The notes below the pieces were generated by a model. That model was not told the origin of the DNA. It made no database searches and saw only the letters and a list, made by a program, of their open reading frames with translations. Below, one piece after another: positions 10,847-64,000 of a DNA stretch of 64,000 nucleotides. The position numbers were made by a program, and so were the translations under genes. Source of the DNA: Rhodothermales bacterium (GTDB taxonomy: Bacteria > Bacteroidota > Rhodothermia > Rhodothermales > Bin80). Each line of letters opens with the position of its first letter. Within the stretch, counting starts at the first letter, position 1. The stretch covers positions 65,090-129,089 of the forward strand of contig CBDBLZ010000017.1 of assembly GCA_965207385.1 (NCBI GenBank), in the 5' to 3' direction.

Positions 10847-10919
10847 GAGACCTCCTGGCACCTCGCGCGGCCTTGTCATACCGCCAAGTCCGACGAATGT
10901 GGCAATGGTATGGGACTTG

Positions 10920-11446: not shown

Positions 11447-11451
11447 GGCTG

Positions 11452-15079: not shown

Positions 15080-15088
15080 GTAGCCTGC

Positions 15089-15883
15089 CTATAAGGCAGC
15101 CAGGTAGTCGATCAGAATCTGCAATTCTGCCGCCGAGACCTGCTCATGAAACGAGGTCGCGGTCATCATGGCTGACATGACGCCTGCGGCAAACCCCTCC
15201 GTTACGGTCGCGTCCGGGTCCACGATGGATTCGTACAACTCGCCACGGCTCAGCCGACTGCCAACGCCTGCCAGCGTGGGACCGGCACCGACAGCGCCAT
15301 CCAGCGTGTGGCAGGTGTTGCACAGATACGCCGTGAAGAGGGTCTCCGCATCGCGCGGCTCACCCGCTGCCACTGCCGCAGTCGGAGCCGCTGCGGGCGC
15401 GATCTGGCCTTGCCATTCCAGTTCGGTGTCCATGGTCACCGACGGCGTGCCGCCAAGCGACTGCAGATAGGCGATGACAGTCAGAATCTCCGTGTCCGTC
15501 AGTGATATCGGCGGGCGCGCAACGTTGGGCATGCCGGCCACAAAACCCTCCACGACGTAGGCGTTGGGATCGTACATGGACTCCGCCAGATAAACGACGT
15601 CGCTTACTCCTTCCTCCCGCTCGGCAGCGATGGCGCCGATGCCAGCCAGGTCAGGAAAACGGAGCCCCGTCCCGGATTCGCCTACGGTGTGGCATGTCAG
15701 GCACGTTCCCTTGCCCGCTGCAATTTCCTGGCCTACGGCCACCATTTCCTCCGTAGTAAGATTGGCGCCGATCACGATATCCTCGGGCGGATCCGTTCGC
15801 TTCTGCGGTACCCACAGACTGACGTACCAGTAGAAGGCCGATACGATGATCGTAAAGCCGAATATTTGAAGGGCGTGTTTCAC
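15089..15883 (-). CDS. membrane-anchored dihaem cytochrome c
   Basis: 264-aa ORF with an N-terminal TM helix (IFGFTIIVSAFYWYVSLWV) and CLTCH and CNTCH sites. Confidence 0.8.
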   Translation of the reverse strand: MKHALQIFGFTIIVSAFYWYVSLWVPQKRTDPPEDIVIGANLTTEEMVAVGQEIAAGKGTCLTCHTVGESGTGLRFPDLAGIGAIAAEREEGVSDVVYLAESMYDPNAYVVEGFVAGMPNVARPPISLTDTEILTVIAYLQSLGGTPSVTMDTELEWQGQIAPAAAPTAAVAAGEPRDAETLFTAYLCNTCHTLDGAVGAGPTLAGVGSRLSRGELYESIVDPDATVTEGFAAGVMSAMMTATSFHEQVSAAELQILIDYLAAL

Positions 15884-15916
15884 TGCTACTGATGCCTGGC
15901 AGCCGAGGGCTTCGTC

Positions 15917-17647: not shown

Positions 17648-18138
17648 AGACGGTCAATCGGAAAGAGCCGCACCAAAACAACTGCCTGCCATGGACATTG
17701 TCAAGGCAATCCGCACCGGCTCTGAACCCATGAATATCTGTCTGAGACCAACTTTGGCAAAATGTACGAAGCAGCCGGAACCCCGTTCGACCGGTGGGCC
17801 ATATAATAGTGCGTCATAGTCGGAAGCAGGAGTGAATTTTTTTGTTGCTGCCATAGCGGCACTCCTTTTGCCGGCAGCGTTTTGCCTGGCAGTCTGGGGA
17901 GGTGTGTCCCTGCTCAAGCGGATACACCGGAAGGGCCATGCGCTGCGTGCGCTTCCTGTGCCGAGAAAGATCGCTGTCGCCGCGCGTGCCCGGGTCACCG
18001 AGCCGGAGTCGGACGACGGGCCTTGGCCCGATTACACGTATGATTCGGGCATATCGCGCGGCTTTCCGGAAGCATGGGAAGAGGATTTGTTGCTCAGGCG
18101 CAACTAAATTAGCCCCTAACCAGACGGGCACATCCACT

Positions 18139-19305
18139 ATGTTGCAGCGGCTCATCGCCAGGCTGGATGCGTACAGGGAAGTTGCCTTTGACCTGATTCG
18201 CATCTACCTGGGCATCGGGCTCTTTGTCCGGGGCATTCTTTTCGCCTACGATTCCGACGCCTTTGTCGCGCTGCTGCCGACGGGTGCGCCCGCCTGGCTT
18301 ACGCTTTCGTGGGTGCTGACTACCGTGGCGTTCGTCCACATGCTCGGCGGACTGCTGATCGCGGTGGGCTACTGGACGCGCTTCGCCACGCTGGCCCAGA
18401 TTCCAATATTGTTTGGCGCCGTTTTTATCAGCATCGGCGGTCTGTTCTCGCCAGACCAGTCGTTCGAGCTTTCCGCCCTGGTACTTCTGCTACTCGTACT
18501 GGTGCTCATATGCGGCTCCGGAAAGTGGTCCGTTGACTATGCCATTGGAGAGCGCAGGCCATCCATTCAGATCGCCCTTGACCGGATAGCCGAGTACCGG
18601 AATACGGCATTCGATGTCTTGCGGATGTACCTCGGGGTGGCGCTGTTTGTCCGCGGCGTGGTCTTTATTTCCGACGCAGGCGCATTCATGGCCCTTCTCG
18701 GCAATGACTCCGCGGGATTCTTGCAATCCTCCGTCCTGGTGCATTACGTGGCGCTGGGCCACGTATTCGGCGGCTTTATGATGGCGGCTGGACTGCTGAC
18801 GCGCGTGGCGGCATTGGTGCAGATTCCCATTCTCGTAGGTGCCGTCGCTGTCAGCCAGGTGCAGGGCGGTCTCATGGCGGGCACCCAGGGCTTCGAGATC
18901 TCGGCCCTTACCCTGTTTTTGCTGGTCCTGGTGCTGCTGTATGGATCCGGCCAGTGGTCTGCCGACCATTACCTGCTGCGGCGGCCAGCGCCCGCTACCA
19001 GGCGGGAACGTACGGAGCGTGCAACGGAAATACTCTCGCACGACGTGCCGGAGGAGGGTCCCTTCGTGGATCCGGTAGAGATACTGGCCGTACCCGAAGC
19101 CAGAACGGACGCTGCCCTTGCCGCAGCGCTGAAAGACAACCCGCTGGTGGTCACACACGCGCGCTATCCCTTCTGGGGTTGGCTGCTCTTTCTGCTGGAC
19201 GTGACCCCGCGCCCTCGGGAGGTCATCTTCCGGCACATGAAAACGGGGAAGATCATAAAGCGCAGCAAAGATCCTGACGTGCTGCGCCAGTTCCGGTATC
19301 GGTAG
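18139..19305 (+). CDS. tandem DoxX-family membrane protein with a C-terminal soluble extension
   Basis: ORF 17902..19305 trimmed to MLQRLIARLDAYREVAFDLIRIYLGIGLFVRG (ATG at 18139). A second copy of the same pattern follows (IAEYRNTAFDVLRMYLGVALFVRG). Confidence 0.65.
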   Translation: MLQRLIARLDAYREVAFDLIRIYLGIGLFVRGILFAYDSDAFVALLPTGAPAWLTLSWVLTTVAFVHMLGGLLIAVGYWTRFATLAQIPILFGAVFISIGGLFSPDQSFELSALVLLLLVLVLICGSGKWSVDYAIGERRPSIQIALDRIAEYRNTAFDVLRMYLGVALFVRGVVFISDAGAFMALLGNDSAGFLQSSVLVHYVALGHVFGGFMMAAGLLTRVAALVQIPILVGAVAVSQVQGGLMAGTQGFEISALTLFLLVLVLLYGSGQWSADHYLLRRPAPATRRERTERATEILSHDVPEEGPFVDPVEILAVPEARTDAALAAALKDNPLVVTHARYPFWGWLLFLLDVTPRPREVIFRHMKTGKIIKRSKDPDVLRQFRYR

Positions 19306-19357
19306 CGCCGGCTGCTGCCGGCCATGTCATGGCTAATCTCCGCAAGCTGCAGTAGCG

Positions 19358-20314
19358 ATGAGAATCACCGAGATACTGGACCGGGCGAAGGACCCGCTCA
19401 TCTCCTACGAGATCATCCCTCCCGTTCGCGGCAGCTCGGCCGATCAAATCATGGCCGTCGTCGAAGATCTGATGCCGTTCGATCCTCCCTTTATTGACGT
19501 AACCAGCCATTCGGCAGAAGCACACTACGAGGAATTACCCGACGGCACGTGGCGGCGCAGGGTCAAACGCAAGAGACCCGGCACCATTGGCATCTGCGCT
19601 GCCATCCGGAGCCGCTTCGGCGTCGAAACAGTGCCGCACATCCTCTGCCACGGCTTTACCCGCAGCGAAACCGAGGATGCGCTGATTGAACTGAACTACC
19701 TGGGTATCAATAACGTGATGGCGCTCCACGGCGATGACACGGGCTTCCAGAAGACCGTGCCGCCCGGCACGGGAGTCAACACGGCTGCCATTGATCTCGT
19801 GCGCCAGATCGGTGCCATGAACCAGGGCCGCTACCTCGAAGAGCTCATGGATGCGAAGCCGACGGACTTTTGCATTGGCGTAGCCGGATATCCCGAGAAG
19901 CACTTCAAGGCGCCAAATCTTACCTGGGACATCCTGTATCTGAAGAAAAAGGTCGATGCAGGTGCCCATTACATCACCACGCAGATGTTCTTTGATCCTG
20001 AGCACTACGTGGGCTTTGTCGAGCGATGCCGCGCCGTGAATATTGAAGTTCCAATCATTCCCGGCATCAAGGTACTGACAACCAAGAGGCATCTTCACCT
20101 GCTGCCGAGCCGGTTTCACGTGACGGTCCCCGAGGCGCTTGCGGCGGAGGTTGAAGAGGCGTCGCCAGAGCACGTGCGCGATGTCGGCGTCGAATGGGCG
20201 CTTCGGCAATGCGATGCGCTTATGTCGGCCGGCGCGCCGTGCATTCATTTCTACGTCATGCAGCAGTCCGGGCCTGTGCGCCGCGTTGTGGAGGGCTTGC
20301 GCAAGCTGGCCTGA
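19358..20314 (+). CDS. metF: methylenetetrahydrofolate reductase
   Basis: 318-aa ORF with SYEIIPPVRGSS, PFIDVTSH and YITTQMFFD, typical of MetF. Confidence 0.85.
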   Translation: MRITEILDRAKDPLISYEIIPPVRGSSADQIMAVVEDLMPFDPPFIDVTSHSAEAHYEELPDGTWRRRVKRKRPGTIGICAAIRSRFGVETVPHILCHGFTRSETEDALIELNYLGINNVMALHGDDTGFQKTVPPGTGVNTAAIDLVRQIGAMNQGRYLEELMDAKPTDFCIGVAGYPEKHFKAPNLTWDILYLKKKVDAGAHYITTQMFFDPEHYVGFVERCRAVNIEVPIIPGIKVLTTKRHLHLLPSRFHVTVPEALAAEVEEASPEHVRDVGVEWALRQCDALMSAGAPCIHFYVMQQSGPVRRVVEGLRKLA

Positions 20315-20746
20315 TAGAATAGCCGGATCTTCGCAAGGTTGGAATACGGGCGCCAAGCCTCTTGGTTGCCCCGTGAATACCTGCGCGGCAGCCAGCCGGA
20401 GTCGCTCATGGACACGCGCGCGTGCCCGGGTTTGCATTGCAGGCGTGAGCATGTTGACCATGCCTGCAGTCCAGGTAGCTCCCGCCGTGGGTACTGCCGT
20501 CGTACTTACGGAATACTAAGCCCCGTGGTAGACTCAATGGTAGCCAAGGGGGCGCCCAAGCCGGCCGTCAAGGCCACCGGGCCAGCATCCTGGACCGGCT
20601 TCTGGCGGTGTAGCCTGCGCGCAAGGCACATCCGCCTGCCATTGCCTCTGAAGGCGAGCAAAGCCGGCCAGGGAGCGGCAGCCAGTTGGCTTGCATGCCA
20701 GATGCGCAATATGTACTTATAGGGCTGACCGCCAACCTGCCGTTCC

Positions 20747-22057
20747 ATGCGACAATTCCTTCCAGTTTTCCTCGCCTTACTTGCCGGCTGTACCCTGCAG
20801 TACAGCACACCGGAAACCGGGCTCTTTGCAGGAGATCCGTGGCCGGATATCCGCACGCAGCGCATTGAGACGCTACTGCCGCGGGCCATGGACGGCGCAG
20901 GCGTTGACGCCTGGATTACGCTGTGCCGGGAAAACAACAACGACCCCATGGCGCACCACATCGGCTGCGAAAACGCCGGGGGCCTGGCCGCCTTCCTGTT
21001 CTTCCGTACGCAGCAGGGGGTGTATTCCGTGGCCATATCGCCGGTAGGGGAAGCCACGGCGCTGGCCGAGAAAGCCATCATGTCAGAGGTCATTCCCATG
21101 AGCGGACGCGGACTCTGGAGCGAGATCGGCGCCCAGTTTGAACGCTTCCGGCCCGACAGCATCGCCATCAACAGCGGACGCAGCGCCATTGCGGACGGGC
21201 TTTCGCACCGACAGCACACGAGAATGATGCAAGAGCTGGGCGGCGAGTGGACCCGCCGCATGGTTTCATCTGAGCCTCTAATCCTGTCATGGCTGTCGGT
21301 CAAGCTGCCGGACGAGGTCGCAATCATGCGCGAAGCAGCCCGGCTGACGGCCCGCTGGCAAGTCGAGGCCTACGCTGCGGCCATACCGGGCGTCACCACT
21401 GACCGCGACATAGCGGACATGCTGGAGGCGAAGATGGCGGCTGCCGGCGTCGGGGATGCGTGGGCTCCGGAGCAGAACCCGTCCATCAATTCCGGCAAGG
21501 ATCGCGGCCACTCGCATCCGACCGAGCGCGTCATCCAGCCCGGCGACTTCATTCAGACCGACTTCGGCATACGGGTGCATGACCGCTGGGTGACGGACAT
21601 CCAGCGGTTCGCTTACGTGCTGGCCCCGGATGAGACCGCGCCGCCCCCGGACGCCCTGCAGAAATGGGAAGCTGCGCGCGCTGGCAGCCGGGCGGCGTAC
21701 GCGGCCATGGAGCCAGGCGCCACCGGTGCTGATGTGGACCGGGCGCAGCGCATCTCCATGCGGAAGGCAGGCTCCCTGCCCGTGCGCTGGAGCACGGGGC
21801 ACCCCGTCGGCTACTGGGCCCATGACAGCGGCCCGGCGCTAAGCGGCGGCAGGGAAGGCGCAGTGCCGTCAGGCCGCCAGACGCAGCCGCTAGAGCCGGG
21901 AATGACATTCGCCTTCGACGGATTTCATTCGTGGGGGCTGACAGACTCCACCACAAAGACCATTTCCGTAGAGGAGATGGTGGTGATCACGGAGACGGGT
22001 GCGGAGTGGATGACGCCGCCGCAGGAGGAGCTTATTCTGATTCCGTCGCGGCGCTGA
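20747..22057 (+). CDS. M24 family metallopeptidase (Xaa-Pro aminopeptidase-like) lipoprotein
   Basis: 436-aa ORF with a canonical lipobox (FLALLAGCTL). The C-terminal pita-bread-like pattern includes GDFIQTDFG, TGHPVGYWAHD and VEEMVVITETG. Confidence 0.7.
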   Translation: MRQFLPVFLALLAGCTLQYSTPETGLFAGDPWPDIRTQRIETLLPRAMDGAGVDAWITLCRENNNDPMAHHIGCENAGGLAAFLFFRTQQGVYSVAISPVGEATALAEKAIMSEVIPMSGRGLWSEIGAQFERFRPDSIAINSGRSAIADGLSHRQHTRMMQELGGEWTRRMVSSEPLILSWLSVKLPDEVAIMREAARLTARWQVEAYAAAIPGVTTDRDIADMLEAKMAAAGVGDAWAPEQNPSINSGKDRGHSHPTERVIQPGDFIQTDFGIRVHDRWVTDIQRFAYVLAPDETAPPPDALQKWEAARAGSRAAYAAMEPGATGADVDRAQRISMRKAGSLPVRWSTGHPVGYWAHDSGPALSGGREGAVPSGRQTQPLEPGMTFAFDGFHSWGLTDSTTKTISVEEMVVITETGAEWMTPPQEELILIPSRR

Positions 22058-31140: not shown

Positions 31141-32136
31141 ATGGCAAAGCCCGCCCACAAATATCTTTTGGACTTCGAGAAACCGCTCGTCGAACTTGAG
31201 GAGAAGCTCAATGAGATGAGAGCGGTGGACACGTCGCGCGGCGACGTGGACCTGTCGGAAGAAATTGCGGCGCTGGCGGCCAGGGTGGACGAGCTCCGCG
31301 CGTCCATCTACCAGAATCTGACCCGGTGGCAACGCGTCCAGATTGCGAGGCATCCGCTCAGGCCATACACGCTGGATTATATCGAAGCCATCACGAGCGG
31401 CTTTGTGGAAATGCATGGCGACCGCGCCTTTGCCGATGACCGCGCCATCGTTGGCGGCTTCGCAATGCTGACGGGCAGCACCTTTGGCTATCGCGACCGG
31501 GCAGTGCTGGTGATCGGGCACCAGAAGGGGCGCGATACCAAGAGCCGCAAATTCAGGCGGTTCGGCATGCCCAACCCGGAGGGATACCGAAAGGCGGGGC
31601 GGCTCATGAAGCTGGCAGCAAAGTACAACAAGCCGGTTGTATGCCTGATTGACACGCCCGGCGCCTATCCCGGGATGGAAGCCGAGGAACGAGGCCAGGC
31701 CGAGGCCATAGCCCGCAATCTCTTCGAAATGGCCCGGCTACCGGTTCCCATTGTGATTGTCATCATTGGCGAAGGGGCCTCGGGAGGAGCCCTCGGGATC
31801 GGCGTCGGCGACCGGCTATTGATGCTTGAGAACGCCTGGTACTCCGTTATAGCACCTGAAAGCTGCTCGTCGATTCTATGGCGCTCCTGGGACTACAAGG
31901 AGGAAGCTGCCCGCGCCCTGAAGCTGACGGCGCCGGACCTGATTGAGCTCGGCGTCATCGATACCATCGTGCCGGAACCAACCGGTGGCGCGCACCGTGA
32001 TCCGGAGACGGCCTTTCGCGCCGTGGGTACCGCTGTCTGCAATGTCCTCAGGGAACTCGAGCCGCTCTCAACGGAAGAGTTGCTGGATGGGCGTCTTGCG
32101 CGGCTGGATAAAGTCGGAGTGTTCGAAGAGGGGTAG
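31141..32136 (+). CDS. accA: acetyl-CoA carboxylase carboxyltransferase subunit alpha
   Basis: 331-aa ORF with [37 protein letters not shown] and [11 protein letters not shown]. Confidence 0.9.
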
Positions 32137-32549
32137 GATGCAAGCGGCGTTCTGGCTGTAGCCGGAGCCAACCGTGTCTTGCCTGAGACGACGGGCGGGC
32201 GCCCGTGGCGGCGTCTCGTTCGAGAAATGCTGCATTCGTCGAATCACAGGGCTGGCGCCAGGCGATGCTGCTGCTCTTTGAAGGGTCCTGCGCGCTAGGC
32301 CGAACGATCCTCGTTTGCTACTCCCTTGCAGGCTGGACAGGGCGATTGCTTCCGGGACGATGTGTACCACCACCGCTTTCGTCGGGAGCGGGAGCTATGC
32401 GCGCCTCACCTTCAGTACCTTTCGTGTGGCAGAATAGGTTTGCTCAGGTCCAGGTCCGAGGACGATTGCTGCGTTAGAAGGCATAAACCCGCGTACGTCG
32501 TCAGGCCCAATCCTTTAATGCACCAGACAGTGGAATCCCGTATCAATTC

Positions 32550-32888
32550 ATGATGGAGGCGAAGAAGCGCAGCGTCCAGGAATATGAGGATTTACATGGT
32601 CGCAATCCGTACAAGAAATGGTTCGATGACCTCAATTACCATGCTGCCACCAAAGTGGCTGTGGCGCTTGCCCGGTTGAAGCAGGGCAATCTTTCCAACG
32701 TTAAGGCCTTGCGACGCGGCGTCTTCGAGCTTCGTATCCACTTCGGTCCAGGCTACCGAATCTACTTTGGCAAGGACGGCGACACGCTAATTGTTCTTCT
32801 CGGTGGCGGAACGGAAAAACGTCAGTCTGGTGACATAAATCGTGCGGAACGCCGCTGGCAGCAATACCTTCGACGTAGAACAGGATAA
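32550..32888 (+). CDS. type II toxin-antitoxin system toxin, RelE/HigB-like (addiction module killer family)
   Basis: 112-aa ORF with GVFELRIHFGPGYRIYFGKDGDTLIVLLGGGTEKRQSGDI, the characteristic killer-protein pattern. Confidence 0.75.
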   Translation: MMEAKKRSVQEYEDLHGRNPYKKWFDDLNYHAATKVAVALARLKQGNLSNVKALRRGVFELRIHFGPGYRIYFGKDGDTLIVLLGGGTEKRQSGDINRAERRWQQYLRRRTG

Positions 32889-32893
32889 AGGCT

Positions 32894-33211
32894 ATGCCAC
32901 TGACGCGGGACTACAGAGAGACGATTCGAGAGAGAATCAAGCGGGATCCGGAATTCCGTGAAGCACTTTTGCAGGAAGGTGTGGAGTGTATGTTGGGAGG
33001 CGACCTTGAGACTGGCAAGGCGGTGCTGCGCGACTACATTCTGGCCACCATGGGATTCAAGGATCTGGGCTCTTTGACCAACAAGTCCCCGAGGAGCCTG
33101 ATGCGCATGCTGGACGCACAAGGAAATCCTCAGGCCCGCAATCTATTCAAGATTGTCCAGTGCATTCAGGAACGCGAGGGCCTGCACTTGAGGGTGCACG
33201 CCGTTAGGTAA
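32894..33211 (+). CDS. type II antitoxin, HigA-like HTH (addiction module antidote family)
   Basis: 105-aa ORF 5 nt downstream of the toxin, with DPEFREALLQEGVECMLGGDLETGKAVLRDYI and RSLMRMLDAQGNPQARNLFKIV. Confidence 0.7.
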   Translation: MPLTRDYRETIRERIKRDPEFREALLQEGVECMLGGDLETGKAVLRDYILATMGFKDLGSLTNKSPRSLMRMLDAQGNPQARNLFKIVQCIQEREGLHLRVHAVR

Positions 33212-33879
33212 CCTGTGAAATGGTCGCTCCCTTTGCGACCGCGTTTCGAATCGCACGCACGGCTTTGCCATGCTGCTTAGCATGGATGTGTATCCGGTCC
33301 ACTCTAGAGGTCATTCCCGCAGGACGGTCACCCTTCAGGAAGGGTGCCGTCTGATTGAGGGTAAGATCTGGAGAGACTGCGCTGCCGTGAATCCCTTGTA
33401 CAGAATTCGTTACGGGTTGGCGAAAGAGCCGCCTTCTCGTATGCCACGCTGCCCAATTCATGGAGCGCCGGTTCGGCCGATTTCATTGCGAATGTACGGC
33501 GCTTGACTGAATCACGGGGTCAAGAGGGTCGAGTAATTCCGGGCGTCCCGTGAGTCGATTCTTGGTGAGGGTCGCCAATATACTCCCATGAAGGTCAAAT
33601 ACCGGCCCCTCCGCTTTTCGATGAGTCTTGTCGGGCACTGCTCGGTTGCAGGCACAGCTCCGGGCAAGAACCGATCAACAATCACATCGCACACTGGTAC
33701 AATTCCGGACATACAGGCATAATCGTTGACCCTGCGAGCCAGAATAGCGCCATCAAGGCGGGACTCTTCGGCTCAGGCGGTCTCGTGTGAAATATGAACC
33801 ACTCGCGACGCGCCCCAAACGCCTGAATCAGGTCCAAATACAAGTACTGTCCCGCCAATTAAAGGCTCGTGACGTCACC

Positions 33880-55242: not shown

Positions 55243-56124
55243 ATGCCTCGCTCTATACGTCTGATAGGGGCTCCGATGGACCTCGGACAGGACCTGAGAG
55301 GCGTAGATGTCGGACCCAGCGCACTGCGCTACGCCGGGCTGGCGCATCGGCTTCGTCAGCTGGATCATCACGTGGAAGACTTCGGCAACGTGGAAGTGGC
55401 AGTGCGCGGCTCGCTTGCCGGCCCGTCCTTCATCGAGCCCATCTGCAGCTCCTGCGAAAGGATCTACGAAGCTGTTCGCAATTCGCTTGCCGACGACAGC
55501 CTGCCGCTTGTGATGGGCGGCGATCATTCCATTGCGATAGGCACCATTGGCGGTGCCACCGAGGCCGGGCCGACGGGCGTGCTGTGGATTGACGCACACG
55601 CGGATTTCAATACGCCGGAGTCGTCACCCAGCGGAAACGTGCACGGCATGCCGCTGGCGGTCCTGTGCGGCCAGGGCCCCGCCGCGCTGGTGAACGTGGG
55701 GCGCAAGGGGGCAAAGCTCAGGCCGGAGGACGTGATGATCATTGCCCTCCGGGCCATTGATGCGCACGAGCGCGACATGCTGCGGGAACGGCGGCTGGGG
55801 CTCTACACCATGCGTGAAATCGATGAGCGGGGCATGGGGACCGTCGTCCGGGAGGCGCTGGAGCGCCTGGAGCACCACGACCGGCTCCACGTCAGCCTCG
55901 ATGTCGACAGCGTCGATCCCATGTTCGCCCCGGGCGTGGGCACGCCTGTGCCGGGAGGACTGAATACGCGCGAAGCCCATCTCATGATGGAACTCATTGC
56001 GGAGGACGGTCGGGTCGGCTCCGTCGATGTCGTGGAAATAAACCCGATCCTGGACGTGGGCAACCGCACGGCCGTGCTGGCGGCGCAGCTGCTGGCCTCG
56101 CTCCTGGGCAAGACCATCCTCTAG
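55243..56124 (+). CDS. rocF: arginase
   Basis: 293-aa ORF with GGDHSIAIG, WIDAHADFNTPESSPSGNVHGMPLA, SLDVDSVDP and GGLNTREA. Confidence 0.85.
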   Translation: MPRSIRLIGAPMDLGQDLRGVDVGPSALRYAGLAHRLRQLDHHVEDFGNVEVAVRGSLAGPSFIEPICSSCERIYEAVRNSLADDSLPLVMGGDHSIAIGTIGGATEAGPTGVLWIDAHADFNTPESSPSGNVHGMPLAVLCGQGPAALVNVGRKGAKLRPEDVMIIALRAIDAHERDMLRERRLGLYTMREIDERGMGTVVREALERLEHHDRLHVSLDVDSVDPMFAPGVGTPVPGGLNTREAHLMMELIAEDGRVGSVDVVEINPILDVGNRTAVLAAQLLASLLGKTIL

Positions 56125-56131
56125 ACGGGTC

Positions 56132-56797
56132 CTACTGCACGGGCGCAACGTGCACGGCACTGGCCAGGTGGTAGCCTACCACGCACTCGCGTCCACCGAT
56201 GCGCAGCGTCAGCGGCCCCTTGAACGGCGCCTTCGACACAACATCAACCCTGTTGGAAGGCAGCAGGCCCATTTCCTCCAGGTACTGGAGCCGTTCGGCA
56301 TCGGAATCCGAAACCTCCAGTATGCGCACCGTCTGTCCGGCCTCTATCTGAACCAGCGGTGTGGTGGCGGCCTCGGTCAACTTTAGATCTGCCGACGGAA
56401 TGGGATGCCCGTGCGGATCGTGCGTCGGAAAGCCCAGAAGCTCATCTATCCGCTGCTCAAATTCCTCCGAAATATGGTGTTCCAGGTGTTCAGCTTCCTC
56501 GTGCATCTCTGCCCAGGAATACCCCAGGACCTCTTTCAGGTATGTCTCCAGGAGCCGGTGGTGACGCAGGATCTCCAAAGCTATTTTCTCTCCTGCCGCC
56601 GTCAGGCGCACGCCGCGATAGGATTCGTACTCCACGAGTTTGGCCTTGGCCAGGCGCTGCATCATGTTGGTGACCGAGGCAGACGAGACACCAAGAGCAC
56701 GGGCGAGGTCCGTCGTAGAGGCCTTGTCCTTTTCCAGCTTGTAGATTGCCTTCAGATAGTCCTGGACCGCGGGGCTGAGAAGTGGCGTACGGGACAT
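56132..56797 (-). CDS. DtxR/MntR family metal-dependent transcriptional regulator with a C-terminal FeoA/SH3-like domain
   Basis: ORF 56132..57286 trimmed to MSRTPLLSPAVQDYLKAIYKL (ATG at 56797). It has VSSASVTNMMQRLAKAKLV, HEEAEHLEHHIS and PTHDPHGHPIP. Confidence 0.85.
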   Translation of the reverse strand: MSRTPLLSPAVQDYLKAIYKLEKDKASTTDLARALGVSSASVTNMMQRLAKAKLVEYESYRGVRLTAAGEKIALEILRHHRLLETYLKEVLGYSWAEMHEEAEHLEHHISEEFEQRIDELLGFPTHDPHGHPIPSADLKLTEAATTPLVQIEAGQTVRILEVSDSDAERLQYLEEMGLLPSNRVDVVSKAPFKGPLTLRIGGRECVVGYHLASAVHVAPVQ

Positions 56798-56805
56798 AAC
56801 GCCAT

Positions 56806-57540
56806 GTGCAACCGGTGGACGCAAACCCGGATCCCCCTGGCATGCCAGACCACGTTCCACGCCACAACCTGAGTATTCGCCAGACGGCCGATGGCGCTGC
56901 CACGCTCTACTCACGCGCCTACGGGCAGACGTACCATAGCGAGCACGGTGCCATTCTCGAGGCGCGCCACGTGTTTCTTCGGGGAACGGCCTATCGCCCG
57001 CCGGCACGCGTACTGGAGGTAGGATTTGGCGCCGGGCTGAATCTCCTGGTAACGGCCTCCGAGACGCAGGAGCACGTCCTGCGCTACACCGCGCTGGAGC
57101 GCTATCTGCCGCCTGCGGACCTGCTGCAGGTACTCGATTACGGCGCCGTCGTCGGCAGGCCGCGGCTATGGGCAGCTCTTGTAGATTGGCGGCGCACCCT
57201 TCCCTTGGACGTGCCGGTCGGCACCTACCGCTTCTCGTGCATGGGCTGCGAGCTTGATCTGCTGATGGGCGAGGCCACCGAATCAAAGCTCCCGGCCCGC
57301 ACGTTTGAGGCCGTGTACCTGGATCCGTTCAGCCCAAGGGCCAATCCCGAGTTGTTCACCCCCGGGTTCCTGTCCGCGCTCTACCGGGCTACGACCCCGG
57401 GCGGGCGTATTGCGACCTACTCTGCTGCCGGGGCCGTGCGACGTGCCCTTGCTGCCGCGGGATATGAGGTGAGGCGCGAGGCCGGCCCGCCGGGCAAGCG
57501 CGAGTTTCTGACAGGGCTCAGGAATGAGTCCTGTCCGTAA
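56806..57540 (+). CDS. mnmD: tRNA (mnm5s2U34) methyltransferase MnmD (stand-alone MnmC methyltransferase domain), full length
   Basis: 244-aa ORF (alternative start at 56842) with TLYSRAYGQTYHS, VLEVGFGAGLN and AVYLDPFSPRANPELFT. Confidence 0.75.
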   Translation: MQPVDANPDPPGMPDHVPRHNLSIRQTADGAATLYSRAYGQTYHSEHGAILEARHVFLRGTAYRPPARVLEVGFGAGLNLLVTASETQEHVLRYTALERYLPPADLLQVLDYGAVVGRPRLWAALVDWRRTLPLDVPVGTYRFSCMGCELDLLMGEATESKLPARTFEAVYLDPFSPRANPELFTPGFLSALYRATTPGGRIATYSAAGAVRRALAAAGYEVRREAGPPGKREFLTGLRNESCP

Positions 57541-57925
57541 TTACTATGCGTCCGTCCTGCTCCAGCGTGGCCCACTGGCCCGAGCGCAGCCGGCAAAAGT
57601 CGTCCTCCGACAGGCTTGCAACCGGCAGCACCTTGCCGTAGAGCTCCTCGGCCACAATCGAGGCCAGGGTCAGGAAGGCGTCCGGGCCGCAGGCAATCAC
57701 GGCGGCCGGCGCCGTCCCCCGCCGCAGGGACTCCAATAGGACCGCCGTGGAGGTGCTTGAGCCGCGCGTGGCGGGAAGCGCGAGGATAGAAGCAGCGGCA
57801 ACGCAGCCCGAAAGCGGATGCCTGCGGTCAATGATCTCACCGGTTGCAGCATCGTAGCCGCCCCAGAAGCTGAGCGGCTCCCGGCTGGCCAGCACCTTGC
57901 CGGCTGCCGGTCCCGCTACAAGCAT
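57518..57925 (-). CDS. DUF126 (aconitase X swivel / small subunit) protein, copy 1
   Basis: ORF 57518..58120 trimmed to MLVAGPAAGKVLASREPLSFWGGYDAATGEIIDRRHPL (ATG at 57925). Confidence 0.7.
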   Translation of the reverse strand: MLVAGPAAGKVLASREPLSFWGGYDAATGEIIDRRHPLSGCVAAASILALPATRGSSTSTAVLLESLRRGTAPAAVIACGPDAFLTLASIVAEELYGKVLPVASLSEDDFCRLRSGQWATLEQDGRIVITDRTHS

Positions 57926-57936
57926 ACGTGCCCGGA

Positions 57937-58455
57937 TCAACCCTTCCACGGCTCTTCGCTCAGCGTTACCCGCCCGCTCGCGGCGGACTCCACGCAGTCC
58001 CGCAGGCTCCCGCACACCACGCGGGTCCCCAGCAGCCCCGGCGCATAGTATGCGTACTTGGCAGAATTGGTCATGATGGTCCGCACGCGCCGCGGCAGCA
58101 TGGGCGTGGTCAGAATGCACGTATCCACGGTCACCGCGCCGCCGAATGCTTCCAGGCGCGCCAGATATCCCATTCGCTTTGCCAGCTGCCGCATCGCGCG
58201 GCTTGAGGTAACCAGGAATTGCACATCATCGTGCCTTTGCCGTCCCTTGAGAAGAGGGGCCAAACGGCCAAACTCGGTGATGGAAAAATGCGGACTCCCC
58301 AGAATCACCATGTCCAGCGCTGCACCCTCTGCCGTAGTGAGCTCGCACCTGGCATCCCTCAGACGGTCCAGCGTAACCTCCACCGTCCGCTCCGGCGCAT
58401 GGCCCTGGAAAGCTGCCTCCGCGGTAGGCGCCTCAGGCGTTACTCCCACAAGGTG
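57937..58455 (-). pseudogene. 3' fragment (C-terminal ~172 codons) of a DUF521 (aconitase X catalytic subunit) gene
   Basis: It aligns with residues ~248-419 of the full-length copy at 62725..63984, with 11 aa differences in 172. Similarity stops at ~58455. The first ~37 codons of ORF 57937..58566 are island sequence. Confidence 0.8.
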
Positions 58456-59494
58456 CAATTCAACAAGCCCTGGCCCACCGGGGCCGACATGCTCTGCAAT
58501 AGCCAACAACCCTGGTTGGGCTATGTCTTGGATTGATCGTGATAGTGCCAAGCATCGCGGATTCACTTCGCTTTGCTGTTCATGCGTGAATCGGCAGCCT
58601 GGGCCTATGGGCGTCCCTGAAATGGAGCGGATTCATGGCGCGTAGGTGTGATGCGTGCTCACCAGGATTTGCATGGCCATGGCTTCTGCCGGCTCGCGCA
58701 AGACCGCTGACTGCACGGGCGCTCTCGGTTTCCAGGCGTTGATGGACGATACTGGCGCTGCACTTGCAAGATCACCTCCTGGCCAGGCAGACCGTCAGCA
58801 GCAGGCGCAAGAGCTGCATCGAATCCTTCGTGCAGCTGACGCCGAAGCGGCAACAGGCAATGTAGCCGCTCGGCGTCTCCCTCGGATACAACTCACGGCA
58901 GGCCGCAGCCAAGGACAACACTCTCAGAGCGCAATTCCTCCAGGATGTGCTATTGGCGCCTCGTCCCTGCCTATCCGATTCTTGGAAATTCGGTCACGAC
59001 ACGGTCTCTGCGACGCGCAACATTCTGCCTGCCATTGATATCAACAATATTGCCATACAATTCTATTTTGTTGCCATATTTATAGCACGTAGTATTCACC
59101 ATTATATCTGTAATGGCGTCATATCATTGAAATTCCGACTTACGACGATTGCTCTCGGGACAGGACTGGTTAAGAGCGGTGGAAAGGATACGGGCTCGGA
59201 GGAAGCCCTGCTAAGCAGACGTGATTCAGTCCCTTCATGGCTACCACCGTCGTCGACTTCATAACACCAAAGTGGTCGGGCTCAACGGAATGTGCAGCAA
59301 TTCCGGAGAATGACGCGAGCAAGCTTGGAGACTTCACGCACTATCCCTCTTCGCGGGCAGGGCGCATGCCACCCGATTGGAGGTTGTCGGCGTCGCTGCC
59401 ACGGAAGCATGATTTGGGCTCTGGAACGACAGTATTGGGATGAGGCCTCGCGGCCAGCTTCCGTTTGGGCGGCAGTTTGGAGGAGTGAAAACCG

Positions 59495-61309
59495 ATGAAA
59501 TTCATGTTACCTGAGACACTCAGCCCTGAAAGGACCAAGCGGATACTGTTGACGGCGGTTGTTGCGGCGACCATTTTCGTTCGCTGCGACAGCTTCAACA
59601 TTGCCGACGTGGATTCGGCGACCGATTCCGCCTCGCTGATAGAATCGGTCAGGACGTACTACGAAGCGGCGATTCAGCCGAACGGGCTTGATGGACAAAT
59701 CGGCGGCAAGATCTCTGGCGACAGCATCAGGGCCGCCGTCCTAGCAGAGATGGTACGACAGTACCCGCCCGACTGGACCCAGGCCGTGACGTGGAGAGAC
59801 GGCAACGAATATCACCTTGCAACCATACTTGGCGCCGGCAAGCCCTCGATCAATCCCGCACAAGACAGCATTGCGGTGGTGCGAACTCTGGTTGCGGATC
59901 TTAATGAAGATGGGAAAGTCACCGATGCCCTTCTGGTCGAGTTCGCCAGTTCCGACCCGCTTGACCCAGCTTCCTTTGCTCATTACGTGAAACAGTGGTT
60001 CACTCAGGACTACGGCGATAACAAGGTCCTGGCCGCGGAGTATTCTCTTGGATACGAGGGATCACAGGCCTACTTATACAACCCATCGGACAGCGTACTT
60101 ACACCAGCCAGCTTGTCGCTGGAAAAGCGCAGGACGGCAGGCAAGGCAGCAAGGGAGGACGGTGTATTCTGCTGGTATTCCCTTGTTGAATTTGGCGAAA
60201 TATGTGGGGAACATCCTACCACAGGGGTTGAGGAGTGTAATGCCCGATATAGGTGGGAACTAACCTGCGTGCAGATGGATTCCGGAGGAGGGGAAGATGG
60301 AGGTGGAGGGGGCGGAGGCGGAGGTGATGACGGCAATGGCGACAGTGTAGGTACGGGAGGTGGAGGTGACGATGGAAAAGACGATGATGGTGAAGACACC
60401 AGTGATTCACTCTACTTGTCCTGCGACTCCTCTGTCGAACGAGGCCGCACGGCCGGGTGCACTGTCAACGCTCCGGATGACGGCAAGGGTTTGAACCCGG
60501 ACCAACTCACGTATGACTGGTCTTCCTCGAGTGGAGCGACATTTACCGGTACGGGGACCGGCGGCAATGAGTGGAGGGGCACCGCAACGGAATCCGTCAC
60601 GGTCAGCGTTGCGGTAGTTTCTCAGGGATTCTCTGATTCCCAGGAAATCACCGTTAATGCACGGTCAGGTTGGGGTGTAGGTCAAGCTAGTGTTACAAGC
60701 GTGACGTATGCGAACTTGGGTTCGATTTTGGGACGGTACACTGTCCCTTCAATCGCTACTCCAACTTTTGGAGACCCTGTCGCAGGTGGTGGACCATGGT
60801 CGGGGCGCTTCGCCTCCGGAAGTGCGCCGTCGTTTTCCGGTGACATTCAAATTAATGACAACTACGGCGGCGGGAGCAACACTTACCGAAATGCAAGGCG
60901 GGACGGCTGCCTGAGTGCACGGAACCAGGCGCAAGAATATGAAACATATAGCAGCATCAATTCCATGTGTGGGACGACTGCAGACATGAATGCCTACGAA
61001 CAGCAGATCCGGACTCACGAGTACGGACACCACAATAACCTCAATAGCTGCTTCGGCGAGGCGCAGGGAGTTAAGGCAATGGCGAGCATGGAAGCCATTG
61101 TCGGCGAGTCGGCTGCCGCCGTAGGAACAGCTTTGGGCAACGAGTGGTCAAGCTTCTACTCAAATTATCTTGGGCCTGCCATGGCGTGGTCACCTGCTGC
61201 GCCGGGAGGAGTTGAATTCTACCACGCCAGAAACAAGGGTCTTGTTAGCGAGCACTGGTCCTTGGGCGTGCCCGCTACCGCCGGACACACGAACGCGAAT
61301 TGCAACTAG
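59495..61309 (+). CDS. secreted, lipoprotein-like multidomain protein with a Gly/Asp linker, an Ig-like segment and a C-terminal HExxH (zincin-like) domain
   Basis: 604-aa ORF with GGAGGAG 10 nt upstream. The N-terminus is hydrophobic and ends in a Cys (LLTAVVAATIFVRCDSF). HEYGH is at 61016-61030 (IRTHEYGHHNNLNSCFGE). Confidence 0.65.
   Translation: MKFMLPETLSPERTKRILLTAVVAATIFVRCDSFNIADVDSATDSASLIESVRTYYEAAIQPNGLDGQIGGKISGDSIRAAVLAEMVRQYPPDWTQAVTWRDGNEYHLATILGAGKPSINPAQDSIAVVRTLVADLNEDGKVTDALLVEFASSDPLDPASFAHYVKQWFTQDYGDNKVLAAEYSLGYEGSQAYLYNPSDSVLTPASLSLEKRRTAGKAAREDGVFCWYSLVEFGEICGEHPTTGVEECNARYRWELTCVQMDSGGGEDGGGGGGGGGDDGNGDSVGTGGGGDDGKDDDGEDTSDSLYLSCDSSVERGRTAGCTVNAPDDGKGLNPDQLTYDWSSSSGATFTGTGTGGNEWRGTATESVTVSVAVVSQGFSDSQEITVNARSGWGVGQASVTSVTYANLGSILGRYTVPSIATPTFGDPVAGGGPWSGRFASGSAPSFSGDIQINDNYGGGSNTYRNARRDGCLSARNQAQEYETYSSINSMCGTTADMNAYEQQIRTHEYGHHNNLNSCFGEAQGVKAMASMEAIVGESAAAVGTALGNEWSSFYSNYLGPAMAWSPAAPGGVEFYHARNKGLVSEHWSLGVPATAGHTNANCN
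60278..60410 (+). repeat. purine-rich low-complexity tract encoding a Gly/Asp linker
   Basis: It encodes DSGGGEDGGGGGGGGGDDGNGDSVGTGGGGDDGKDDDGEDTSDS and produces poly-Pro/Ser shadow ORFs on the opposite strand. Confidence 0.85.
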
Positions 61310-61311
61310 CC

Positions 61312-61923
61312 ATGAAAGCCTTAGCGGTTACACTCTCATTCCTGCTGCTTCCTCTTGCCTCGTTCGCGCAGTCCAAAGCGGGCATGATCATGAAGGGGGG
61401 CATCTTCCTGAAACCTACACCGCCGGTTGCACTTGACCAGCTTGTCGAGAAACGAAATATCGATCCCGCCATAGCTGTGCTTACGCAGAAGTTTGAACCG
61501 CGCCCCGTCCCCGAGCTCGATGCCTTCGCGGATCAGCTTGTTCGATTAATGCTTGAGCACCAGGACAGCACCACAAGGTCACATGCACGCCGCGCACTTT
61601 ATGAGGCGGGTAAGGCTCGGTCCGGCGGGACACCCTACTCCAGGGCGACGGAGATATTCATAGAGATGTATGAGTCTGTCAGCAAGGACGAGGATCACCT
61701 AAAGCCAGACGGATATTTGCTTACCGTGTATAATTCAGGGGGCGAAGATTACGTGCATAACCTGTTCGAGACCAGTCCGCAGCCGCCCGCGTGCCGGATA
61801 GGCTACGATACGCCCTGTCCGCACAAGGGGCCTTGGTGCAACGCAGCTTACGTGCTTACGGTGACCAAGAATCTCCCGGACCCTAAGCTCTGGGAGGACA
61901 GGTGTATGCCCATTGTTGAATAG
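61312..61923 (+). CDS. secreted hypothetical protein, partner of the HExxH protein
   Basis: ORF 61300..61923 trimmed to MKALAVTLSFLLLPLASFAQS (ATG 2 nt after the upstream stop). It has a Sec signal peptide and four Cys near the C-terminus. Confidence 0.6.
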   Translation: MKALAVTLSFLLLPLASFAQSKAGMIMKGGIFLKPTPPVALDQLVEKRNIDPAIAVLTQKFEPRPVPELDAFADQLVRLMLEHQDSTTRSHARRALYEAGKARSGGTPYSRATEIFIEMYESVSKDEDHLKPDGYLLTVYNSGGEDYVHNLFETSPQPPACRIGYDTPCPHKGPWCNAAYVLTVTKNLPDPKLWEDRCMPIVE

Positions 61924-61943
61924 GGCGGGACGCCATGCCCACG

Positions 61944-62328
61944 GCAAGCCCCGGCTGTGGGCAGCGCTGGAAGAATGGCGGCCCACCCTTCCCTTGGACG
62001 TGCCGGTCGGCACCTACCGCTTCTCGTGCATGGGCTGCGAGCTTGATCTGCTGATGGGCGAGGCCACCGAGGCAAGGCTTCCGGCCCGCACGTTTGAGGC
62101 CGTGTACCTGGATCCGTTCAGCCCAAGGGCCAATCCCGAGTTGTTCACCCCCGGGTTCCTGTCCGCGCTCTACCGGGCTACGACCCCGGGCGGGCGTATT
62201 GCGACCTACTCTGCTGCCGGGGCCGTGCGACGTGCCCTTGCTGCCGCGGGATATGAGGTGAGGCGCGAGGCCGGCCCGCCGGGCAAGCGCGAGTTTCTGA
62301 CAGGCTCAGGAAAGCGTCCTGTCCGTAA
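61944..62328 (+). pseudogene. 3' fragment of an mnmD-like gene (C-terminal ~125 codons), with a 1-nt deletion before the stop
   Basis: GKPRLWAALEEWRPTLPLDVPVGTYRFSCMGCELDLLMGEATEARLPART aligns with mnmD residues ~118-244. There is no N-terminal half. The deletion (acaggGctc to acaggctc) removes the stop and creates the chimeric ORF 61913..62527. Confidence 0.8.
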
Positions 62329-62713
62329 TTGCTATGCGTCCGTCCTGCTCCAGCGTGGCCCACTGGCCCGAGCGCAGCCGGCAAAAGTCGTCCTCCGACA
62401 GGCTTGCAACCGGCAGCACCTTGCCGTAGAGCTCCTCGGCCACAATCGAGGCCAGGGTCAGGAAGGCGTCCGGGCCGCAGGCAATCACGGCGGCCGGCGC
62501 CGTCCCCCGCCGCAGGGACTCCAATAGGACCGCCGTGGAGGTGCTTGAGCCGCGCGTGGCGGGAAGCGCGAGGATAGAAGCAGCGGCAACGCAGCCCGAA
62601 AGCGGATGCCTGCGGTCAATGATCTCACCGGTTGCAGCATCGTAGCCGCCCCAGAAGCTGAGCGGCTCCCGGCTGGCCAGCACCTTGCCGGCTGCCGGTC
62701 CCGCTACAAGCAT
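62306..62713 (-). CDS. DUF126 (aconitase X small subunit) protein, copy 2
   Basis: Identical to copy 1 except for two C-terminal residues (IAITDRTLS versus IVITDRTHS). Confidence 0.7.
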   Translation of the reverse strand: MLVAGPAAGKVLASREPLSFWGGYDAATGEIIDRRHPLSGCVAAASILALPATRGSSTSTAVLLESLRRGTAPAAVIACGPDAFLTLASIVAEELYGKVLPVASLSEDDFCRLRSGQWATLEQDGRIAITDRTLS

Positions 62714-62724
62714 ACGTGCCCGGA

Positions 62725-63984
62725 TCAACCCTTCCACGGCTCTTCGCTCAGCGTTACCCGCCCGCTCGCGGCGGACTCCACGCAGTCCCGCAGGCTCCCG
62801 TACACCACGCGGGTCCCCAGCAGCCCCGGCGCATAGTATGCGTACTTGGCAGAATTGGTCATGATGGTCCGCACGCGCCGCGGCAGCATGGGCGTGGTCA
62901 GAATGCACGTATCCACGGTCACCGCGCCGCCGAAAGCCTCCAGGTGCGCCAGATGCCCCTTTCGCATTGCCAGCTGCCGCATCGCGCGGCTTGAGGTAAC
63001 CAGGAATTGCACATCAACGTGCCTATGCCGTCCCTTGAGGAGGGGGGCCAAACGGCCAAACTCTGTGATGGAAAAATGCGGACTCCCCAGAATAACCATG
63101 TCCAGCGCTTCGCCCTCTGCTGTTGTGAGCTCGCGCCTGGCATCTCTCAGGCGGTCCAGCGTCACCTCCACCGTCCGCTCCGGCGCTTGGCCCTGGAAAG
63201 CTGCCTCCATGGTCGGCGCCTCGGGCGTTACGCCCACGAGGTGGAAGAGGGCAACCGCGCCCGAAGAGGCCATGGCTGCACCCAGCGCTTTCAGCGCGTC
63301 CTCGTCCGGCCGCACGTCCAGCCCCGCAAGCACCGGCACGGCATCCCTGGCTTCCTTTCCCACGAGGTGCCCCAGAACGCCGAAAAAGCCGTCGTCTTCC
63401 TGCACGGCCACCGGCACATCCACCAGCCGAATGAGGATACGTCCGGCCCTGTTCTCCTTCAGATGCAACCCGGCTGCCGGTGCCCGCCCCGTGATGGCGG
63501 CACAGATATCCAGAAGATCCGGGTACCGTTCGGTCCTGGCTCCCAGTACGGAATTGGCAAACACCACCGCACTGGATTCTCCCCAGGCCACCTGCTGTCC
63601 GAAGCTCGGGCGCGCGGCCTCCTGGTACGGAGCGCAGGTCCAGGTCGGCCGGCATCCCATTGCGGTGTAGGCCTTCATCTGCCTCCGTGCCGGCTCCGCC
63701 CAGTCCGCAGGGACGCTCCAGGCCTGCCAGCCGTGCACGTCCACGCCGCTCACGTTCAGCGTAGTCGGTACCACAACGCGCGCGCCGAGACCCGCCAGCC
63801 GCTCCGCGTATTCGAGCGTGGCCTGCCCCTGGTAAAGGCTGCTGTCCACGTGTGCGGCTTCGATATCGAGCAGGCTGTCGGTACGGAAAGCGGGCAGCAT
63901 GCGCACCAGGATGCGCATGGCCATGGCTGCTGCCGGACCCCGCTCTCCTGCGAGCGCGGCCCGGTCTGCTTCGCTGAGCTGCAT
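62725..63984 (-). CDS. DUF521 (aconitase X catalytic / large subunit) protein, full length
   Basis: 419-aa ORF with VDSSLYQGQATLEYAERL, PTWTCAPYQ, ESSAVVFANSVLGARTERYP and a C-terminus ending SEEPWKG. Confidence 0.75.
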   Translation of the reverse strand: MQLSEADRAALAGERGPAAAMAMRILVRMLPAFRTDSLLDIEAAHVDSSLYQGQATLEYAERLAGLGARVVVPTTLNVSGVDVHGWQAWSVPADWAEPARRQMKAYTAMGCRPTWTCAPYQEAARPSFGQQVAWGESSAVVFANSVLGARTERYPDLLDICAAITGRAPAAGLHLKENRAGRILIRLVDVPVAVQEDDGFFGVLGHLVGKEARDAVPVLAGLDVRPDEDALKALGAAMASSGAVALFHLVGVTPEAPTMEAAFQGQAPERTVEVTLDRLRDARRELTTAEGEALDMVILGSPHFSITEFGRLAPLLKGRHRHVDVQFLVTSSRAMRQLAMRKGHLAHLEAFGGAVTVDTCILTTPMLPRRVRTIMTNSAKYAYYAPGLLGTRVVYGSLRDCVESAASGRVTLSEEPWKG

Positions 63985-64000
63985 GGTACGTTGACTCCGG

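Follow-up and report, generated by a model that had tools for sequence, protein, structure and literature searches.

A foreign two-gene island between direct repeats of host genes in a Rhodothermales bacterium: a candidate insertion-duplication by homologous recombination

Within the 64,000-nt window analysed here, a stretch of contig CBDBLZ010000017.1 from a Rhodothermales bacterium (GenBank assembly GCA_965207385.1), a 3.5-kb island of foreign base composition (58456-61941) lies between 1.3-kb direct repeats of host genes. The repeated genes encode MnmC2, a tRNA methyltransferase, and the small and large subunits of AcnX, one of the aconitase-X dehydratases (PMC5144071, PMC8184944). With modest confidence, we read this locus as a real chromosomal duplication-insertion allele that entered through the homologous recombination of the host, in a single-crossover (Campbell) event. 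The process is a known one, and the locus involves no new mechanism and no new kind of element. On this reading it would be a natural case of accessory genes added by host homologous recombination alone, with no host gene lost, and its scar is still legible as duplicated gene ends, a single illegitimate joint and apparently xenologous shoulders around an identical exchange tract. Such events are familiar at the bench and have rarely been documented in wild genomes, where they may be under-counted because island finders seek integrases, tRNAs and IS elements.

Self-BLAST of the whole window returned 57153-58455 and 61942-63243 as its sole long repeat (E = 0), with 1303 aligned columns, 96.5% identity, 44 mismatches and one 1-nt gap. 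The two copies are offset by 4789 nt at their start and by 4788 nt past a 1-nt deletion in the right copy, opposite position 57514. The left copy comprises the 3' third of mnmC2, the AcnX small-subunit gene and the 3' 172 codons of the AcnX large-subunit gene, and it has a single-copy counterpart in each of the three relatives described below (L001, L167 and L002). Differences between the copies are clustered at both ends, around a 603-nt core (chi-square p = 3e-17). At the mnmC2 edge (57153-57197), 8 of 45 positions differ, followed by 7 of 345 across 57198-57543, only 1 of 603 in the core (57544-58146, counterpart 62332-62934) and 28 of 309, or 9.1%, in the shoulder of the truncated AcnX large-subunit copy (58147-58455, minus strand), which resembles the orthologue of a sister species. 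The near-identical core is a candidate crossover or gene-conversion tract. These results agree with a first-pass annotation of this DNA, which had reported the repeat pair with its 4789/4788-nt offset and indel, and uneven divergence along the copies. Several finer claims held as well: two C-terminal amino acid differences between the copies of the small subunit (its DUF126), an island-proximal position for 10 of the 11 amino acid differences in the large subunit (its DUF521), which fall in the first 103 codons of the fragment, and LVDWRR versus LEEWRP at the edge of mnmC2 (its mnmD). The gene content that it had given for the repeats also stands, with the names updated to MnmC2, AcnX-small and AcnX-large.

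The intact mnmC2 gene (56806-57540, plus strand) encodes a predicted stand-alone tRNA mnm5s2U methyltransferase that scores 163.6 bits against NCBIfam NF033855, where the equivalog-domain cut-off for MnmC2 is 136 bits, and that also matches Pfam PF05430. It converges with the AcnX operon, and the gene ends overlap by 23 nt (57518-57540). The left copy of AcnX-small (57518-57925, minus strand; PF01989, E = 3.7e-20) is intact, with a start codon that was checked, and now lies downstream of a dead large-subunit gene, of which a 3' fragment is present at 57937-58455 (minus strand; codons 247-419 plus stop, PF04412 profile positions 244-400). On the other side of the island, a 5'-truncated mnmC2 fragment (61942-62328, plus strand) retains the last ~129 codons, its island-proximal 45 nt being 18% diverged and its end disrupted by a frameshift from a 1-nt deletion after 62302. 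It is followed by the intact operon, with AcnX-small (62306-62713, minus strand; identified by family scan) and AcnX-large (62725-63984, minus strand; PF04412 profile positions 1-400, E = 5e-142). The operon thus has a full-length PF04412 large subunit adjoining a PF01989 small swivel subunit, as expected of a two-subunit AcnX. Each host gene survives in one intact copy, since the repeats cover the point where the genes meet tail to tail. The repeat indel lies 4 nt outside the AcnX-small stop codon and frameshifts the mnmC2 fragment only, which yields a 204-aa read-through open reading frame (ORF; 61913-62527) antisense to AcnX-small. The left AcnX-small remains intact despite its dead upstream partner gene; expression from the island side and upkeep by conversion are both conceivable.

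Three relatives, L001 (92% nucleotide identity), L167 (84%) and L002 (73%, a complete chromosome), carry this locus as one contiguous block with no island, in the order arginase, DtxR, mnmC2, AcnX-small, AcnX-large and a PhoD-like gene. The first two of these genes were found by family scan in the window at 55243-56124 (arginase, plus strand) and 56132-56806 (a DtxR/FeoA-type repressor, minus strand). In each relative, this single locus aligns to the left and to the right repeat copy, and the two alignments overlap by ~1.3 kb. The direct repeats are therefore represented by a single contiguous host segment at the empty site of L001, L167 and L002, as in Campbell integration, and the contiguous mnmC2-AcnX arrangement is the empty site that the first-pass annotation had proposed to look for. 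With three empty relatives, the arrangement in the window is either derived or was lost at least three times. The right copy can be recognised as the one still in its native context, since 13 of the 16 nt upstream of the intact AcnX-large match the upstream region of L001, with no match to the spacer of the island, and since a PhoD-like orthologue (93% identity) is present on the same 152,821-nt contig, outside the window.

This native context bears on a plain tandem duplication of the 4.79-kb unit from mid-mnmC2 to the end of the cargo, in which the cargo would originally have been the upstream neighbour of AcnX-large, the left AcnX would have decayed and a second cargo copy would sit just past the window. 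Such a duplication would create exactly one novel joint, as is observed, and the degenerate AcnX sequence beside the spacer and cargo (see below) resembles a former divergent gene pair; the window does stop at 64000. However, the nucleotides upstream of the intact AcnX gene resemble L001 rather than the spacer, the PhoD-like gene lies upstream in L001, L167 and L002 and has its orthologue on this contig, and the protein collection holds one 604-aa sequence from the contig, with nothing between 100% and 48% identity to it. The xenologue-like shoulders would also go unexplained. We give a tandem duplication only a slim chance.

The pattern of substitutions indicates that the truncated AcnX copy is most readily taken as a xenologue, not a decayed duplicate. 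Across the 309-nt shoulder, the left and right copies differ at 28 positions, the left copy and L001 at 32, the right copy and L001 at 36, and either copy and L167 at ~60. When the 28 differences were polarised by L001, 14 proved to be derived in the intact copy and 10 in the truncated copy, with four ambiguous. The changes specific to the truncated copy comprise seven synonymous and three non-synonymous substitutions, against a neutral expectation of 26% synonymous (p = 0.005). Between the left and right shoulders, the synonymous divergence (dS) is 0.247 and the ratio of non-synonymous to synonymous divergence (omega) is 0.20, which is indistinguishable from the comparison of the intact AcnX-large with its L001 orthologue (dS 0.22, omega 0.17). 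The dS and omega values and the synonymous excess imply that the shoulder diverged within a working gene and not as a drifting dead fragment, over a period roughly equal to the time since this genome and L001 parted. At the mnmC2 edge, distances are equal three ways, with left-right, left-L001 and right-L001 differences at 8, 6 and 7 of 45 positions, respectively. The core is 7% diverged from L001 though near-identical between the copies, so its identity reflects recent exchange rather than constraint. A lineage like L167 was considered as donor of the shoulders and rejected, as both copies are ~19-20% diverged from L167. The earlier proposal of a xenologous incoming copy is thus borne out by the shoulder dS and omega and by the 7:3 synonymous excess. 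Its companion proposal, that gene conversion later homogenised the centre, survives in part: the identical core does speak for recent exchange, but a later round of homogenisation is unneeded, as a crossover-associated conversion tract may suffice.

The same substitutions weigh on the view that the duplication-insertion arose in situ around or before the split from L001, after which concerted evolution homogenised the interior while the edges escaped, and the empty relatives would have lacked the structure from the start or shed it through recombination of the repeats. Shrinking conversion tracts would fit the strata of 0.2% in the core, 9% in the shoulder and ~33% in an AcnX remnant within the island, whose frameshifts and stops are what long decay would produce, and since repeat recombination restores a perfect empty site, empty relatives are weak evidence of absence. 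A truncated AcnX of that age should nevertheless drift neutrally, which is at odds with the 7:3 ratio (p = 0.005) and the omega of 0.20. Moreover, three empty relatives at graded distances would demand repeated losses, and 1.3-kb direct repeats with a 600-nt identical core would be unstable in the long term unless the cargo were selected. We consider such an old duplication rather unlikely.

The remnant itself is a degenerate 5' part of AcnX-large on the minus strand, with a core at 58653-58699 (~codons 14-29) and a possible full extent of 58608-58725. It has a frameshift and a stop, and an island-like GC content of 58%. Its core is 83% identical over 47 nt to 63897-63943 in the intact gene (E = 1.7e-6), and 58608-58699 (codons 14-45) is 69% identical to L001 over 94 nt (E = 1e-5). 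The local alignment score of 25 was reached in none of 300 dinucleotide shuffles, which gave 10.9 +/- 1.0 with a maximum of 15; the protein-profile match is weak. The remnant is on the same strand as the left AcnX-large copy and in the correct order relative to it. It is ~31-35% diverged, in a 5' region where the intact gene differs from L001 by only 6%. A profile search gave no support for an in-register continuation of the left copy beyond codon 247. Given the remnant, the left AcnX-large is an internally deleted gene rather than a cleanly truncated one, and 58455 is a deletion breakpoint in a once-longer copy as well as the limit of contiguous homology. The first-pass annotation had envisaged a clean internal fragment with reciprocally truncated genes, and this fails on the left side, where AcnX-large keeps its 5' remnant.

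On the right side, homology to L001, L167 and L002 begins at 61942, where the island is fused to mid-mnmC2 18 nt past the cargo stop codon (joint at 61941|61942, within 61924-61945). This is the only unambiguous illegitimate joint of the locus. From the core outwards, divergence climbs toward the cargo on both sides, through strata of 0.2%, 9-18% and ~33%.

A single illegitimate joint is also what homology-facilitated illegitimate recombination (HFIR) in this genome would leave. A linear fragment with truncated AcnX, spacer and cargo would have been anchored in AcnX or DUF126, and its other end joined illegitimately in the mid-mnmC2 of a sister chromatid, thereby duplicating the truncated mnmC2 and DUF126 of the recipient. 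HFIR is documented in several bacteria (PMC3240628), and it agrees with the one joint at 61941|61942, with a divergence that is heavier toward AcnX (28 differences) than toward mnmC2 (15) and with a foreign AcnX remnant adjoining the cargo. It predicts, however, an mnmC2 fragment of recipient type, whereas the observed 45-nt edge is 18% diverged and equidistant from L001. HFIR also normally deletes recipient DNA, and the duplications seen in Escherichia coli arose from recircularised molecules (PMC3240628). We hold this route to be improbable.

The island is compositionally foreign. Its GC content is 56%, compared with 66% in the flanks and a window mean of 61.5% (SD 2.7%), and the GC content at third codon positions (GC3) of its two genes is 0.60-0.64, compared with 0.75-0.79 in the flanking genes. 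Its GC content is close to the 56-59% of the other loci that hold the cargo module. Between the AcnX remnant and the cargo lies a non-coding spacer (58726-59494; 52-57% GC) with no family-hit ORF and no Rfam match, which is presumed to be a divergent promoter region; a promoter and terminator scan of the sequence returned hits no commoner than chance.

Scans with Pfam, NCBIfam, PHROG and PADLOC and of ORFs detected no integrase, transposase or Rep domain in the island, as the first-pass annotation had stated. ORFs of at least 60 aa inside it matched no family, and the ORF from 61913 that crosses the right junction matched the mnmC2 family only. The whole window holds no tRNA or tmRNA, and Rfam gave no match in the island. 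Self-comparison found no inverted repeats at the island, and its two ends share no short core. No similarity to the island was found among 72,556 plasmids, searched in distant mode, or among 50,697 phage records. There is thus no recombinase domain, att core or target-site duplication at the island, as is characteristic of Campbell integration.

Several kinds of element were rejected on these results. Against an integrase-type genomic island, integrative and conjugative element (ICE) or prophage, the island has no recombinase domain and no phage similarity and the window has no tRNA or tmRNA; against an insertion sequence (IS) or composite transposon, there is no transposase and there are no inverted repeats. 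A plasmid or engineered suicide-vector integrant was dismissed because there is no plasmid match and because the 3.5% divergence between the repeats is not that of a cloned self-fragment.

The sequence of events that we favour would start from an ancestral site with mnmC2 (plus strand), AcnX-small and AcnX-large (both minus strand) and then the PhoD-like gene, as in the three relatives. The incoming segment would have derived from a sister lineage about as distant as L001, and would have carried, in order, homology to the convergent 3' ends of mnmC2 and AcnX, a dead and internally deleted AcnX-large and the two-gene cargo, with an illegitimate fusion to mid-mnmC2 at the far end of the cargo. 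The recipient would then have gained this segment by RecA-type recombination somewhere in the ~1.3 kb that both shared, in the simplest topology through a single crossover of a 4.79-kb non-replicating circle, with which the single illegitimate joint is compatible. The circle could have been a recircularised linear fragment or a pop-out from a donor in which the repeat-island-repeat structure was already in place. Experiments in E. coli provide a precedent: incoming linear DNA that was homologous on one side only was for the most part trimmed and recircularised, and then entered through a RecA-dependent single crossover, which duplicated 109-950 bp of the target in 56 of 60 clones, with true HFIR in four of 60 (PMC3240628). 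The outcome would be the repeat-island-repeat structure, in which the island-proximal repeat ends are donor sequence and the near-identical centre of ~600 nt is an exchange or conversion tract. Small clusters of differences at 57282-57291 and 57514-57543 could, by analogy, stem from mosaic donor tracts such as those described after one transformation event (PMC13344027). To judge by the age of the AcnX remnant, the repeat-island-repeat architecture seems to have existed before it reached this genome; in a donor with that architecture, conversion from the functional gene there would have kept the shoulder of the fragment fresh.

The same product would result if the entire allele were imported by a double crossover, with both exchanges falling in the repeats, or if a permuted linear fragment integrated between chromatids by a merodiploid mechanism (PMC3784515). 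Since several topologies give the same divergence pattern, the circular intermediate is inferred rather than shown, and the direction of transfer and the assignment of the foreign copy at each shoulder share this standing. The Campbell-type proposal of the first-pass annotation accordingly stands insofar as an integrase-free homologous insertion-duplication is the best reading of the empty sites, foreign cargo and xenologous ends, and falls insofar as it assumed a clean internal fragment.

Several points weigh against this account. Sequence alone cannot tell whether the foreign tracts are the island-proximal ones or the island-distal ones, which would be later imports into the functional genes. 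A remnant that is ~31-35% diverged next to a shoulder at 9% requires an extra assumption, namely that the structure arose before it came into this genome and that gene conversion did not reach as far as the remnant. No donor or second island copy was present in the collections searched, where the next cargo homologue is 48% identical, and no occupied-site relative was seen in JGI metagenomes, where the best match has only 73% amino-acid identity. Upstream of the intact AcnX gene, the window extends for only 16 nt.

Finally, an integrant is the same, by sequence, as an empty-site chromosome and a free 4.79-kb circle threaded through the ~600-nt core. This leads to the possibility of an assembly artefact, in which an empty-site chromosome was threaded through a separate molecule or strain variant that shares the 600-nt core, such as the 4.79-kb circle. 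All close relatives are metagenome-assembled genomes, which makes a metagenome the probable source of this assembly too; mis-threading of this kind would yield formally the same sequence as a Campbell integrant, and graph paths could merge over an exact core of 600 nt. Both junction sequences must nonetheless exist in the reads, and a 4.8-kb circle with neither a replication gene nor plasmid similarity could not persist alone. Short-read assemblers usually break at such repeats, unlike this 152.8-kb contig, and a region of 6.1 kb would be spanned in full by long reads. Biological decay is moreover what the frameshift in the mnmC2 fragment and the internal deletion in AcnX look like. An artefact therefore seems to us quite improbable.

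The cargo consists of two genes on the plus strand. The first (59495-61309) encodes a predicted 604-aa lipoprotein with a Gly/Asp-rich linker, a predicted Ig-like middle domain and a C-terminal HExxH...NxC motif, and the second (61300-61923) encodes a 207-aa protein with a predicted Sec signal peptide and tblastn matches to loci L080 (65%), L081 and L083. Neither protein has a match in Pfam, NCBIfam, PHROGs or PADLOC. Homologues of the large protein with 30-48% identity occur in seven other loci, and HExxH(E/H/N)xxxNxC is kept in all six homologues that span this C-terminal region (P0001-P0005 and P0007); P0006 ends upstream of the motif region and P0008 is unaligned there. An AlphaFold2 model of the 604-aa protein was poor (pLDDT 55), and a fold search with it gave generic Ig-like folds only. 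The cargo is best described as an uncharacterised secreted protein and lipoprotein pair with a metallopeptidase-like motif, its function being inferred. A strong GC-skew spike of +0.23 to +0.25 at 60000-60750 in the window falls where the 604-aa protein has its low-complexity, Gly/Asp-rich linker (GGGEDGGGGGGGGGDDGNGD...).

In six of the seven other loci, the large gene is followed by one to three homologues of the small one; the seventh, L082, is cut off by its contig end after 12 nt of the following gene. The 604-aa and 207-aa genes thus form a conserved two-gene module. Several module loci adjoin transposases, IS110 copies, group II introns or a toxin-antitoxin gene, and L081, L083 and L165 place the module in variable, IS-rich regions. 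AcnX lies beside the module in none of the seven. In L002, the AcnX site is empty, yet a module homologue is present elsewhere on the ~3.08-Mb chromosome (L081, 9700-12100), among Tn5-like, IS21 and Mutator-type transposase genes, where the large cargo gene is seemingly split into several reading-frame pieces. In L165 (219-4086) and L083 (11620-13260), the large gene is followed by two to three tandem paralogues of the small gene, an organisation that recalls effector-immunity loci; no family could be assigned.

Locus L083, on an unrelated 1.27-Mb contig, contains two ORF-less group II introns on the minus strand (8170-9162 and 13267-14258; Rfam RF00029 and RF02003) that are 96.8% identical and bracket a module of a 542-aa gene and two ~265-aa paralogues. 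It was considered as a parallel case of the repeat-island-repeat structure and rejected, as its ~1-kb direct repeats are these mobile introns, not duplicated host genes. Also present in L083 are an inverted 1.78-kb pair of identical IS110-family copies beside the module (14473-16253 and 17870-19650), 59-nt tandem repeats directly upstream of it (9046-9518) and repeats with a period of 69-72 nt inside a large ORF at the end of the locus (20495-21629).

The structure in the window can be set beside several known systems. Campbell insertion-duplications made with suicide vectors, or with linear DNA that recircularised after conjugation in E. coli (PMC3240628), show the same direct repeats of a contiguous host segment and have no target-site duplication, att site or recombinase, with one intact copy left of each host gene. 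The 1.3-kb repeat is comparable in scale to the duplications of that study (109-950 bp), and a single illegitimate joint fits recircularisation of a linear fragment. The present case differs in that it concerns a natural, uncultivated Rhodothermaceae genome, its repeat edges are homeologous (9-18% diverged), the homology carries a dead AcnX copy with an old 5' remnant, and the circle is hypothetical. HFIR in naturally transformable bacteria (PMC3240628) similarly links cargo to a homologous anchor through one illegitimate joint and needs no mobility genes, but it typically replaces or deletes recipient DNA, whereas 1.3 kb is duplicated here, and it does not predict the foreign-like edge on the mnmC2 side.

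Merodiploids formed by transformation in Streptococcus pneumoniae (PMC3784515) also arise as repeat-bordered tandem duplications through host recombination with a short, partly repeated donor fragment. By that route, a permuted linear fragment from a donor with the repeat-island-repeat structure could convert an empty site. The pneumococcal duplications measure 100-900 kb and have IS-remnant borders, unlike the 4.8-kb unit with housekeeping-gene borders seen here. Integrase islands, ICEs and prophages share with this locus a foreign accessory segment between direct repeats that is absent from relatives. They differ from it in that the repeats here are 1.3 kb of coding sequence instead of a short att core, and are accompanied by no integrase, excisionase, tRNA/tmRNA target, conjugation or phage genes.

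Effector-immunity-type modules (PMC5361080) resemble the cargo in that a gene for a large secreted protein or lipoprotein precedes one to three small paralogous genes for secreted proteins. The variable, IS-rich sites (L081, L083 and L165) and the conserved HExxH are shared with these or with protease/inhibitor modules. The cargo differs in that it has no detectable homology to described toxin, immunity, protease or defence families. An uncharacterised and horizontally mobile two-gene module, an HExxH lipoprotein and its secreted partner, is thereby flagged in Rhodothermales.

We also entertain, as an unlikely extension, that the repeat-island-repeat structure is a recombinase-free and self-propagating 'homology cassette', in which copies of conserved host genes, at the tail-to-tail mnmC2/AcnX ends, permanently bracket the cargo. 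If so, host RecA would loop out the 4.79-kb circle, which would re-enter naive relatives by a single crossover, inactivating no gene, and spread between species. The strata of an identical core, 9-18% shoulders and ~33% remnant would then trace a succession of hosts.

Other parts of the window also depart from its mean composition. Patches below 59% GC occur at 1-2500, 10000-11500, 15500-17500 and 32000-33500 and may be further horizontally acquired segments; an open frame of at least 350 aa at ~15.9-17.3 kb has a GC3 of 0.51.

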